Positions 3,573 through 7,081 of a DNA stretch of 64,000 nucleotides are shown here, in pieces (the stretch's first letter is position 1; each line of letters starts with the position of its first letter). A program made the translations under genes and the position numbers. The stretch is taken from assembly GCA_963666275.2 (NCBI GenBank), contig CAXXOA010000001.1:2528001-2592000 (forward strand), given 5' to 3'. Origin of the DNA: Oceanispirochaeta sp. (lineage in GTDB: Bacteria; Spirochaetota; Spirochaetia; DSM-2461). The notes under the pieces were generated by a model, which made no database searches, had not been told where the DNA came from, and saw nothing but the letters and a program-made list of their open reading frames with translations.

Positions 3573-3851
3573 ATGTCTACAAAACTTTATGTGGGTAACA
3601 TGAATTACAAAACTATGGAAGATGATCTGGGAGAACTGTTCGCCCAGTTCGGTGATGTTGAAAATGTCATTATCATTACCGACAGGGAAACCAACAGATC
3701 CAAAGGATTCGGTTTTGTCGAAATGGCCGAGAAAGAAGCGGCTGACGAAGCGATCAAAGGTCTCAATGAGACCACATGGATGGACAGAAAAATCGTGGTA
3801 AATCAGGCCAGAGAACGGACTGAAAGACCCAGATACAACGATAACTATTAA
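3573..3851 (+). CDS. RRM (RNP-1) RNA-binding protein
   Basis: RNP2 KLYVGNM, RNP1 KGFGFVEM; AAGGAG RBS. Confidence 0.95.
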   Translation: MSTKLYVGNMNYKTMEDDLGELFAQFGDVENVIIITDRETNRSKGFGFVEMAEKEAADEAIKGLNETTWMDRKIVVNQARERTERPRYNDNY

Positions 3852-3874
3852 TTTCAGCGATCCTGAATAGAAGG

Positions 3875-3903
3875 CAGCCGGTTCATCCGGCTGTTTTTTT
3901 TTT
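3875..3903 (+). terminator. Intrinsic terminator
   Basis: CAGCCGG-TTCAT-CCGGCTG followed by T10. Confidence 0.9.
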
Positions 3904-3968: not shown

Positions 3969-3997
3969 TTGCCCAAACCCGGAGCTGGTATTATAGT
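3969..3997 (+). promoter_or_regulatory. Putative sigma70 promoter of the leader-RNHCP-rsgA operon
   Basis: TTGCCC-N17-TATAGT. Confidence 0.65.
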
Positions 3998-4029
3998 AAA
4001 GTTATATCTGATGACCTGAGGAGGCGTTC

Positions 4030-4080
4030 ATGTCAATATTTGTATCCCAGGATGTTCCTGTTCAGGGAATCGCCGGGTAA
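4030..4080 (+). CDS. Candidate leader peptide MSIFVSQDVPVQGIAG (16 aa)
   Basis: Strong GAGGAGG RBS just upstream; overlaps an arm (4051-4064) complementary to 4129-4141. Confidence 0.6.
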   Translation: MSIFVSQDVPVQGIAG

Positions 4081-4179
4081 CAAACCTTTCCCCTTCCCTA
4101 CAAGAAAAATCTCATAATCCTTTCTATTTGAACAGGACATCATTTCCCGACTCTTTTTTTGATAACAACAGGAGTTGGT

Positions 4180-4569
4180 ATGTCCAGACAAACAATAACT
4201 GACAACCGGGAACATCACAGCTACCGGGAAAACCAGGCATTTCTCTGCCGCCATTGCGGGATGACCGTACCCCCCGCTGAATTCGGTTCCCGTCAGAGGA
4301 ATCACTGTCCCCACTGCCTCTGGAGTCTTCATGTGGACCTGAAAAAGGGAGACCGCCGCAGCGGCTGCCGGGGTTTGATGGAGCCCATAAGCGTCTGGGT
4401 GAAGCCCTCTTCCGAGTGGGCTGTGATTCACAGATGCCGCAGCTGCGGTTTTATCCGAACCAACAGGATCGCCGGTGACGACAACGAGGGAATCCTTTTG
4501 AAACTGGCCGCAAGGCCTCTGACAATGCTGCCCTTCCCGGCAGAGAAAACATGGGAGAAAATACTATGA
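4180..4569 (+). CDS. RNHCP-domain zinc-ribbon protein
   Basis: FLCRHCG...QRNHCPHCLWSLHVD...CRGLMEP...HRCRSCG; AGGAG RBS before ATG 4180. Confidence 0.92.
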   Translation: MSRQTITDNREHHSYRENQAFLCRHCGMTVPPAEFGSRQRNHCPHCLWSLHVDLKKGDRRSGCRGLMEPISVWVKPSSEWAVIHRCRSCGFIRTNRIAGDDNEGILLKLAARPLTMLPFPAEKTWEKIL

Positions 4570-5678
4570 CAGAAAAGAAACGTACAGAACTTGAAGCCTC
4601 CCTCTCCCCCTGGGGGTGGAACAGCAGATGGCAGGCCCTCCGGGAAGCCGGCGGCACTCCGGATCTTCTTCCCGGCAGGATCACAACCGAATCCAGGCAG
4701 ATCTACACTGTGGAGGGCCCCGAAGGCCCTGTCACAGCCGGGATCAGCGGAGCCTATCACTACAGGGCGGTCCTCCGCTCTGACTACCCCGCCGTGGGAG
4801 ACTGGATTCTGTATAAACCCTCCGACGGAAACAAAGGGGTGATAGAGCAGCTGCTGCCCCGGCAGAGCTGTTTTTCCCGTAAAACCGCGGGAGAGCGGAC
4901 GGAGGAACAGATAATTGCCGCCAATATAGATACGGTTCTGCTTGTATTCGGCATCAACGGGGGAAGGAATTTCACATCAGGGGGGCTGGAGAGGTACCTG
5001 ACCCTGGCCTGGGAGAGCGGTGCTGTGCCTGTGGTAGTCCTGAACAAGGCGGACCTCTGTTCTGCCGAGGAGCGGGAAAAAGCCCTTCTGACCGCAGAGA
5101 ACTCTGCGCCGGGGGTCAGCATCTATGAGGTAAGCGCCCTAACCGGAGAGGGTCTGGAGGGTCTGACAGGCAGTATCTCCCCGGGGAGCACAGTTGCTCT
5201 CACAGGGCCTTCGGGTGTGGGGAAATCCACCATAATCAATGCTCTGGCCGGGCGGGAACTGCAGAAAACCACCTCCCAGAGGGAGGGGGATCTGAAGGGA
5301 CGCCACACAACCACCCGGAAAGAGATGTTCCGTCTGCCCGGCGGTCTGATCCTCATCGATACGCCGGGACTGAAGGAAATTCAGCTCTGGGCTTCCGAGG
5401 AGGCCCTGGCGGAAACCTTCGACGATATTGCCCTGCTGGCCCGGGAGTGCCGTTTTAAAGACTGCACCCACAGGGGGGAACCGGGCTGTGCCGTCCAGCA
5501 GGCCCTCAGCCGGGGGGAGCTGGAACACAGGCGCTATGAGAACTATCTGAATATGGAAAAGGAGCTGAACTATCTGAAAACCAGGCAGGACAGCCAGGCG
5601 GCCAGGATGGAGAGAGAAAAATGGAAAGGCATTGCCAAAATCCAGAAAGACCTGAAGAAACAGAATAAAAGGTCTTGA
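4566..5678 (+). CDS. rsgA: Ribosome small subunit-dependent GTPase A
   Basis: Circularly permuted G motifs NKAD, GPSGVGKS, GRHTT, DTPG; Zn site CRFKDCTHRGEPGC; ATGA overlap with the RNHCP stop. Confidence 0.95.
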   Translation: MTEKKRTELEASLSPWGWNSRWQALREAGGTPDLLPGRITTESRQIYTVEGPEGPVTAGISGAYHYRAVLRSDYPAVGDWILYKPSDGNKGVIEQLLPRQSCFSRKTAGERTEEQIIAANIDTVLLVFGINGGRNFTSGGLERYLTLAWESGAVPVVVLNKADLCSAEEREKALLTAENSAPGVSIYEVSALTGEGLEGLTGSISPGSTVALTGPSGVGKSTIINALAGRELQKTTSQREGDLKGRHTTTRKEMFRLPGGLILIDTPGLKEIQLWASEEALAETFDDIALLARECRFKDCTHRGEPGCAVQQALSRGELEHRRYENYLNMEKELNYLKTRQDSQAARMEREKWKGIAKIQKDLKKQNKRS

Positions 5679-5711: not shown

Positions 5712-5795
5712 ATGAAGAAAAACCAGACTTTACAGAACCTGCTCAGCCTACTACTAGGACTCCTACTCCGGAGCCCCATGGGTTGGTGCAGCTGA
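5712..5795 (+). CDS. Leucine-rich attenuator leader peptide MKKNQTLQNLLSLLLGLLLRSPMGWCS
   Basis: 9 Leu in 27 codons including CTA CTA CTA; lies upstream of a terminator and leuA. Confidence 0.85.
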   Translation: MKKNQTLQNLLSLLLGLLLRSPMGWCS

Positions 5796-5826
5796 CTGGT
5801 TTGATTTTTAATCAATAAGCAAGTTC

Positions 5827-5858
5827 AAAGGCCATGGGAATCTCCCATGGCCTTTTTT
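5827..5858 (+). terminator. Attenuator terminator of the leuA leader
   Basis: AAAGGCCATGGGA-ATC-TCCCATGGCCTTT with T-tract; CCCATGG within the leader ORF can pair with the 5' arm as an antiterminator. Confidence 0.88.
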
Positions 5859-5941: not shown

Positions 5942-7081
5942 ATGAAACGTATTGCCGTATTTGACACCACATTAAGAGACGGAGAGCAGGTACCGGGAGC
6001 CAAACTGGCTGCGAAAGAGAAGCTCCTCCTGGCCCGGCAGCTGGAAAAACTGGGGGTGGATGTGATCGAAGCGGGATTTCCCGCCTCCTCTCCGGGGGAC
6101 GCCGAAGCGGTCAGGATGATTGCCGGGAGTGTGAAGACTCCGGTGATTACAGGACTGGCCCGTGCCGTAAAAGAAGACATCGATATCCTCTGGGAGTCGG
6201 TCCGCTACGCCGAACGGCCGCGGATCCACATTGTCCTGGGCAGTTCGGATATTCATATGAATAACAAGTTTAAAAAGGACAGAGAGGCCATGCTTGAAAT
6301 GGCCGTGGAAGCCGTGGCCTATGCGGCGCAGAAGTGCCCGGATGTGCAGTACTCGCCCGAGGATGCCACCAGAAGCGATCCGGAGTATCTGATCCGGGTG
6401 ATCCGGGAGGTCATCAAAGCCGGCGCCTCGGTGATCAATATTGCCGATACCGTGGGATGGGCGGTTCCCGATGAGTTCGGCAGCCTTATCAGAACCATCA
6501 GGCAGAGTGTTCCCGAACTGGAAGAGAAGACCCTGAGTGTCCACTGCCACAACGACTGCGGTCTGGCCACGGCCAATACCCTGGCGGCGGTGAAAAACGG
6601 CGCCGACCAGATCGAAGTGACCATGAACGGCATGGGTGAGCGGGCCGGGAACGCCGCCCTGGAGGAGACTGTCATGATCATGGGAACCCGGAGCGATTAC
6701 TACAGAGCTTCAACGGGCATACAGCACCGTCTGCTCGTCCCCACCAGCCGGATGGTTCAGCAGCAGATGGGCATTCCCGTTCAGGTGAACAAAGCCATTG
6801 TGGGGCAGAATGCCTTCCGTCACTCCTCGGGAATCCATCAGGACGGGATCCTCAAGAACCGGGAGAACTATGAGATCATCAGCCCCGAAATGGTGGGGGC
6901 CGTCCCCCATGAGTTTATCCTAACAGCCCGGTCGGGACGCCATGCGGTCCGCCATGTACTGGACAAAGCCGGAATAGGACTGGCCGAATCGGACTTTGAA
7001 CTGGTCTTTCAAAAATTCCTTCTTATGGCGGATTCCCGTAAAGAGGTGAAACTGGAACAGCTTCTGGGCCTGGTTAGCTGA
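5942..7081 (+). CDS. leuA: 2-isopropylmalate synthase, short form without the C-terminal regulatory domain
   Basis: DTTLRDGEQ, HCHND, GERAGNA, HSSGIHQDG motifs; 379 aa; Leu leader upstream. Confidence 0.88.
   Translation: MKRIAVFDTTLRDGEQVPGAKLAAKEKLLLARQLEKLGVDVIEAGFPASSPGDAEAVRMIAGSVKTPVITGLARAVKEDIDILWESVRYAERPRIHIVLGSSDIHMNNKFKKDREAMLEMAVEAVAYAAQKCPDVQYSPEDATRSDPEYLIRVIREVIKAGASVINIADTVGWAVPDEFGSLIRTIRQSVPELEEKTLSVHCHNDCGLATANTLAAVKNGADQIEVTMNGMGERAGNAALEETVMIMGTRSDYYRASTGIQHRLLVPTSRMVQQQMGIPVQVNKAIVGQNAFRHSSGIHQDGILKNRENYEIISPEMVGAVPHEFILTARSGRHAVRHVLDKAGIGLAESDFELVFQKFLLMADSRKEVKLEQLLGLVS

Follow-up and report, generated by a model that had tools for sequence, protein, structure and literature searches.

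Comparison of loci points to a conserved uORF-coupled RNA switch in front of RNHCP and an accessory RsgA

Introduction

The GTPase RsgA works at the decoding centre of the 30S subunit and brings about the release of RbfA, and a second RsgA in a genome is annotated as a mere copy of this assembly factor. One such second copy, here called RsgA2, is encoded in a 64,000-nt stretch of DNA from Oceanispirochaeta sp. (contig CAXXOA010000001.1, positions 2,528,001 to 2,592,000; hereafter the window), behind a gene for an RNHCP-domain protein and a leader with a short upstream ORF (uORF). The locus raises the question of what this leader reports on, and whether its translation turns the two genes off or on. 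The original prediction, made from the sequence alone, read it as an antibiotic- or stalling-inducible ribosome-rescue operon with an ErmCL-like leader peptide, and could not settle the ON/OFF logic of the competing hairpins. We argue below, at a probability of about 0.6, that the leader is a uORF-based translational attenuator with whiB7-like polarity, in which efficient uORF translation would repress the genes downstream.

The window copy of rsgA is an accessory gene

An upstream RRM_1 gene (3573-3851) ends in an intrinsic terminator (3869-3899, plus strand, as are all leader and operon features given below) that insulates the RNHCP-rsgA2 operon. A predicted sigma-70-type promoter follows at 3969-3997, with a score of 9/12 and a transcript start inferred near 4004; since pattern scoring found four promoter-like sites where 2.3 were expected, this promoter is weak on its own, and a -35/-10 pattern lies upstream of the uORF in 49 of the 69 leaders compared below, at a median distance of 31 nt. 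The uORF MSIFVSQDVPVQGIAG (16 codons, 4030-4080), the putative sensor, starts behind a strong Shine-Dalgarno (SD) sequence, AGGAGG (4019-4024), whose GGAGG is invariant in 17/17 aligned leaders. The RNHCP gene (129 aa, 4180-4569) and rsgA2 (370 aa, 4566-5678) are coupled by an ATGA overlap at 4566-4569. The uORF, the hairpin arms, a competing arm, a U7 tract and the ATGA coupling, all listed in the original prediction, were reproduced at the positions it gave.

The closest named homologues are from Spirochaetales. The source genome (5.27 Mb) has a single RNHCP gene and, besides rsgA2, one further rsgA, which encodes a 311-aa protein 35% identical to RsgA2 and stands in a cluster of housekeeping look, so that the second, housekeeping copy whose presence had been in question exists and the window copy is the accessory one. 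RsgA2 matches the profiles PF03193 and TIGR00157, has the OB fold, the circularly permuted GTPase domain with intact G motifs and the zinc finger, and its model has the same fold as RsgA/YjeQ structures (PDB 7boi, 5no2; Foldseek E 3e-25). Fold, G motifs and zinc finger are thus shared with the 30S maturation GTPase RsgA/YjeQ, from which RsgA2 differs in its separate clade, its longer tail, its patchy occurrence and its linkage or fusion to RNHCP. The clade stands apart from housekeeping spirochaete RsgA with support of 100/100 in a tree of 34 rows (15 of 50 loci yielded no sequence under the filter used, and one row was excluded). Past the zinc finger, 22 of 23 RsgA2 sequences have 54-65 residues, compared with 27-42 in 12 housekeeping copies, and this C-terminal extension is modelled as a single 49-residue helix with a basic end.

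The RNHCP protein matches PF12647 at E 5e-38 (129 bits against a cut-off of 24), with the RNHCP motif and the Cys pairs present; the Cys and His are invariant across 118 sequences, and zinc binding is probable from these residues. Searches with its model (pLDDT 81.7) gave no Foldseek match at E 0.001 and a best Z of 3.0, and an ESM Atlas search gave no usable match outside PF12647, which does not amount to a new fold. The family is widespread, with 1,517 clusters at 50% identity.

RNHCP is linked to RsgA2

RNHCP occurs in 19 of 41 close genomes; across the class, 68 of 301 genomes have it above the cut-off. It precedes rsgA in 18 of the 19 loci and follows it in one. Among 80 named RNHCP loci, which include Desulfovibrionaceae, Vibrionaceae, Verrucomicrobiota and Bacteroidota, rsgA lies within 2.5 kb downstream in 67 and not in 13. 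RsgA-RNHCP fusions make up 18 of 36 long matches scanned, among 150 profile matches listed, and in two of three fusions examined the RNHCP domain directly follows a short-tailed RsgA. Because of this gene order and these fusions, the functional link between the RNHCP protein and an RsgA paralogue, as originally proposed, is well supported at the level of sequence comparison.

Some loci depart from this layout. Two RNHCP domains stand in tandem in P0121 and P0123. At L075-L081, where RNHCP has no nearby rsgA, it lies behind a probable FKBP-type gene in five loci and a probable tRNA gene in two. RNHCP is frameshifted or decayed in appearance at L016, L074/L087, L082 and L221, with leader and rsgA2 kept. 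A plasmid collection has 136 records with relatives of RsgA2 (E up to 1e-40), and six plasmid or megaplasmid neighbourhoods of RNHCP/rsgA2 held no consistent resistance cluster. On a Lysinibacillus plasmid (L185, 6004-7526), rsgA2 lies directly upstream of the fosfomycin-resistance gene fosM; a Streptomyces plasmid (L184, 5494-6964) carries two tandem RNHCP genes beside an FBP-domain gene, with a second FBP gene near, FBP being the FusB-type EF-G-binding domain.

The leader is conserved as a uORF and a long-range helix

In close relatives, uORF and helix are found in 18/18 RNHCP-first loci. The wider set started from 89 deduplicated loci with a placeable RNHCP start, of which 77 had a uORF call; after 8 divergent or doubtful ones were dropped, 69 leaders remained, and counts over them include kin and are not independent. 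Nine of the 12 loci with no uORF call were inspected: the canonical leader, with a weak SD, is present in one, a different type of uORF in four, and no uORF in the last four, two of these being Vibrionaceae.

The window helix, P1, pairs 4051-4064 inside the uORF with the switch strand at 4129-4141, with one bulged U. Beyond this core, a G-rich extension carries the 5' strand to 4070 (4051-4070 in all), and the loop within P1 (4081-4128) is C-rich and G-poor. The switch strand could alternatively pair, via 4135-4140, with the RNHCP start at 4180-4185 (helix P2). The P1 strand inside the uORF is a decoy of the RNHCP start region. Because the single window leader folds only modestly better than its shuffles (z -1.78; 13/200), the case rests on comparison.

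Across the family, P1 is formed by uORF codons 7-12 and a partner strand that lies some 25-115 bases upstream of the RNHCP start, and in untranslated folds its probability exceeds 0.5 in 60/69 leaders. At each of seven P1 positions, 56-60 of the 60 leaders that could be anchored (out of 65) keep the pair, with double changes at five positions; this count is partly circular, as the best duplex of each leader was used to set its register. As an independent check, a plain alignment of 13 leaders gave pairing in 98.7% of P1 cells, against 34-44% in slid registers, with modest covariation (two compensated pairs; 23/500 shuffles equally high). P1 starts at +21/+22 from the uORF start in 50 of the 61 leaders where it can be placed, and its letters are translated as DVPV, MFLF or GVLF, or lie past the stop codon in four leaderless uORFs. 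What is constrained here is an RNA helix at a set distance from a start codon. The anti-SD element is likewise conserved in position and not in its exact letters. The comparison thus places the leader structure beyond chance: the predicted conservation of a uORF-coupled RNA switch in homologous loci is borne out by the 18 loci above and by compensatory changes among the 69 non-redundant leaders, and by these signs uORF, P1 and their fixed spacing form a real, conserved switch.

The four leaderless uORFs (L053, L056, L057 and L061) have 6-7 codons and begin at what appears to be the 5' end; P1 follows directly after their stop codon.

Leader folds gave no fixed partner for uORF bases +10 to +15. 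Rfam covariance models, which cover curated families only, gave no match over 3969-4190 at E up to 5, and no second copy of the leader was found elsewhere in the source genome. Pattern scans over 30 loci of the class and 80 metagenome loci recovered the switch strand in 28, of which 27 precede RNHCP or rsgA, and we rejected the idea that the leader is a general regulon element. The remaining 76 metagenome pattern matches, which have neither the switch strand nor an RNHCP or rsgA match, look chance-like. One metagenome locus (L302, minus strand 930-650) carries a complete leader without an RNHCP/rsgA match within 900 bases; the frame behind it probably encodes a SAM-dependent methyltransferase.

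The uORF peptides lack ErmCL-type arrest motifs

The ermCL-ermC system is a translational attenuator with a short uORF, alternative helices and an SD-sequestering hairpin, all of which the window has too. The peptide analogy to ErmCL and to macrolide stalling nevertheless failed: among 66 distinct uORF peptides, IFV occurs in 1/66, IFVI in 0/66 and R/K-x-R/K, within the first 10 codons, in 0/66, and the P1 segment is translated in varying frames. The uORFs, of 6-18 codons, instead follow the pattern M-x-[AVD]-[FI]-V. A hydrophobic residue is encoded at codon 4 in 52/66 peptides (background 33%) and Val or Ala at codon 5 in 52/66 (background 9%); as codon 4 is almost always TTT or ATT, its signal may lie partly at the RNA level. 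In 48/66, codon 2 or 3 encodes Ala, Ser or Thr (background 35%), and such a context is where chloramphenicol arrests ribosomes, according to PMC12121999; we take this match as a lead only.

At the verrucomicrobial RNHCP-rsgA2 loci L148, L152, L153 and L155, a different, 20-codon uORF begins M-R-A, with Ala again at codon 3.

Folding models suggest that uORF translation represses the first gene

The RNHCP SD is held in a hairpin at 4146-4178 (arms 4147-4155 and 4170-4178), predicted at -11.2 kcal/mol alone and -17.0 kcal/mol with P2 (4135-4140 with 4180-4185), and an equivalent tail:RBS pairing is found in 48/69 leaders. P2 is perfect in 35 of the 60 anchored leaders and has three pairs or fewer in 13. 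P1 has changed in several lineages that retained ATGTC, and part of the reason for the Met-Ser-Arg start may therefore lie in the protein.

The hairpin also contains the U7 tract that had been pointed out (4154-4160). The tract is present; a role as terminator was rejected, since the hairpin preceding it reaches only -3.3 kcal/mol and a run of at least six U occurs in 7/69 leaders, so that it is not conserved. The window leader has no intrinsic terminator, and terminator-like sites were found in 4/69 leaders.

For polarity, a ribosome footprint was masked at successive uORF codons and each of the 69 leaders was refolded. P1 is kept in 56/69 leaders when the P site is at codon 1, and is lost when it is at codon 6. 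The switch strand is paired by more than 2 bp to the initiation region in 39/69 leaders with a ribosome at codon 6, against 12/69 at codon 1; its pairing in the window (P2) goes from 0.1 to 4.1 bp. From codon 1 to codon 5, the cost of opening the initiation region rises by 1.7 kcal/mol, by more than 1 in 36/69 leaders, and falls in 8 (26 up and 5 down among 48 clusters), compared with +0.28 for a control mask in the loop (7/65). Untranslated RNA and RNA with a ribosome at codon 1 have equal opening costs (mean difference -0.04). These modelled effects are modest overall (+1.2 to 1.7 kcal/mol), and the window itself is static, at 12.8, 12.6 and 12.0 kcal/mol for codons 1, 5 and 7. Because the local SD hairpin persists in both states, in the window as in the 48 leaders that have it, the modelled ON state is still fairly closed. 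Folding with the uORF masked, as the original prediction had suggested, therefore gave a split outcome: P2 forms, but the opening cost in the window does not move. With a shorter, helicase-edge footprint, applied to 48 of the shorter canonical leaders, P1 survives in 39, 27, 16 and 1 of the 48 for codons 4, 5, 6 and 7, respectively, and the conserved codons thus end where melting begins.

The opposite polarity, as in ermC and toiL, would make P1 together with the SD hairpin the OFF state, and a drug-stalled ribosome at codons 4-8, on the hydrophobic-Val motif, would melt P1 and let the freed strand open the SD hairpin. It would account for the preferences at codons 4 and 5, for the coexistence of SD hairpin and P1 in the folds, and for the likeness to ToiL, which stalls at Val5 with tylosin (PMC12121999). 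The conserved codons fit whiB7-like polarity as well, because P1 mostly survives a ribosome at codon 4. In the folding models the freed strand meets the anti-SD tail, as in ermC, in 10/69 leaders and the start region in 39/69, opening costs go up rather than down, and IFVI is absent from all 66 uORFs. We consider this reading quite unlikely; by the models, the ON/OFF logic most likely runs opposite to that of ermC.

In the mechanism we propose, uORF codons 7-12 would act as a decoy of the first gene's initiation region. Free of ribosomes, the decoy would pair with the switch strand in P1 across 60-300 nt, the RNHCP start would be held by the SD hairpin only, and the state would be permissive. 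Normal traffic from the strong uORF start, which is presumably translated, would melt P1 once the P site passes codon 5-7, and the freed switch strand would pair with the start-codon region in P2, lengthening the hairpin into a repressed state. If a ribosome is arrested at codons 1-4, or if initiation is scarce, P1 would stay intact and the traffic would be blocked, so that RNHCP and the coupled RsgA2 would be made when early translation falters. Polarity and switch point here are those of the models.

Natural swaps of the first gene support this polarity

In relatives with a swapped first gene, all three strands are re-tuned. We found 12 rsgA2 loci of relatives without RNHCP, with a uORF leader call in 8. 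In L163 and L165, where rsgA2 comes first, an anti-SD replaces the anti-start sequence at the end of the switch strand, and the uORF decoy is altered to match. In L164, whose uORF is near that of the window, the tail can base-pair with the new start codon, and the uORF with that tail. A different uORF segment copies the rsgA2 SD in the rsgA-first leaders L175, L176 and L179-L182; with a ribosome at the last codon, the minimum-energy fold shifts the anti-SD from uORF to SD in L175 and L179-L182, as predicted. L166 and L167, with no RNHCP match in 2.9 kb, retain the ATGTC-type start ATGTCC on a short remnant frame. Opening costs after the swap rise clearly in L172, L179, L180 and L181 and weakly or not at all in others, being nearly static in L163, L165 and L176 and lower in L164. 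As the compared sequences indicate, these loci share one rule: the initiation site of whichever gene comes first has a decoy in the uORF. The swaps are the best evidence for the polarity. Polarity of the whiB7 type is backed by models and swaps and does not show in the opening cost computed for the window.

The small effect on initiation in the window could also be accounted for if sensor and polarity were the same and the main output were Rho-dependent termination: ribosome passage would open P1 and expose the C-rich loop, a candidate Rho loading site, which P1 and its G-rich extension otherwise hide. C exceeds G in the loop of 67/67 leaders (1579 against 958), compared with 39% of background upstream windows, and in 67/69 forty-base stretches ahead of the switch strand; the source genome has a rho gene, and toiL-topAI couples translational and Rho control (PMC12121999). 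The C excess, however, is partly the partner of the G-rich uORF end, the short leaders L016 and L017 have almost no loop, and the swaps follow the initiation region rather than a Rho site. Rho as the main output is therefore unlikely in our view, while a Rho layer beneath translational attenuation is possible, and would have the same polarity because opening P1 would expose the C-rich loop.

A constitutive damper, in which the structure does no more than hold down an extra GTPase that could be harmful, with the uORF as a by-product, would agree with the SD hairpin in both states and with the lack of a modelled switch in the window. Such a damper needs none of the features that are kept, namely the start codon, the SD or leaderless start, the fixed P1 spacing and the re-tuning after swaps, and we regard it as very unlikely.

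Discussion

By the features tested, the leader is not of the ErmCL, toiL or vmlR type. Relative to ermCL-ermC, IFVI is missing, the modelled polarity is inverse, and the strand within the uORF acts as a decoy of the start of the gene behind it. The toiL-topAI leader of E. coli (PMC12121999) likewise has a short uORF, Val at codon 5, translational control and possible Rho coupling; toiL, however, pairs the RBS directly, so that stalling opens the RBS, whereas here the uORF pairs the anti-RBS (switch) strand. The vmlR leader of B. subtilis, as described in PMC9226507, also senses initiation-arrested ribosomes and has an SD-sequestering hairpin, but needs a terminator and a stalled ribosome for its ON state, whereas here untranslated RNA behaves in the models much as start-arrested RNA does (the -0.04 above), except in L179 and L180.

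The closest polarity is that of the whiB7 attenuator, where efficient uORF translation represses and stalled or lost translation, including start-codon mutation, activates, according to PMC10274678. The whiB7/wblC uORF attenuator resembles the present one in its modelled polarity (translation represses, failure permits) and in standing above translation-stress genes; it differs in using an intrinsic terminator and a long uORF, compared with 6-18 codons, a targeted initiation region and few terminator-like leaders here. In S. coelicolor, the rsgA paralogue SCO6149 is WblC-activated and SCO5211 is treated as the unregulated counterpart (PMC7157823); the supplementary table of the same paper, with columns parsed from its PDF, gives 68.4-fold activation for SCO6149, 18.0 for hflX, 148.7 for arfB and 406.7 for lrm. 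SCO6149 resembles RsgA2 as a second rsgA copy, the comparison being one of copies and not of clades; another Streptomyces rsgA is 40% identical to RsgA2 over its full length and groups with it. By analogy, this WblC control of a paralogue outside the clade comparison is the one pointer to the antibiotic induction and ribosome rescue originally proposed.

A literature search, with most subscription papers and bioRxiv supplements outside its reach, found no description of a leader before RNHCP/rsgA and no biology paper on RNHCP. The leader is a real and apparently unpublished form of uORF attenuation that stands before an uncharacterised paralogue of RsgA and its partner RNHCP. A conserved switch driven by ribosome traffic would tell when RNHCP and RsgA2 are needed and makes their function directly testable. 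We infer that the signal may be an antibiotic or a small-subunit defect, and that RsgA2 and RNHCP may repair, recycle or protect small subunits. With drugs as the signal, the pair would be a new module of intrinsic tolerance that works on the small subunit; with small-subunit defects as the signal, the leader would close a feedback loop on ribosome quality. The decoy design, with ermC logic inverted at the translation level, could in addition serve as a compact biosensor for early arrest.

Speculatively, and with the odds against it, RsgA2 and RNHCP might form an undescribed, mobile, stress-inducible factor for small-subunit rescue or protection, a 30S counterpart of HflXr and ABC-F proteins. 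The arrested ribosome would then be reached by the long, basic helix at the C terminus or by a fused RNHCP domain that stands in for it, and the leader would be a general early-arrest sensor built on a start-site decoy and rebuilt several times before rsgA2.

Downstream of the operon, no terminator scored between rsgA2 and the next leader, and RNHCP-rsgA2 transcripts may therefore extend into it. This next leader (5712-5855) is a classical leucine attenuator: a Leu-rich leader peptide (5712-5795; 27 codons, 8 of them Leu) is followed by a strong terminator (5827-5855) and an HMGL-like, leuA-type gene at 5942.
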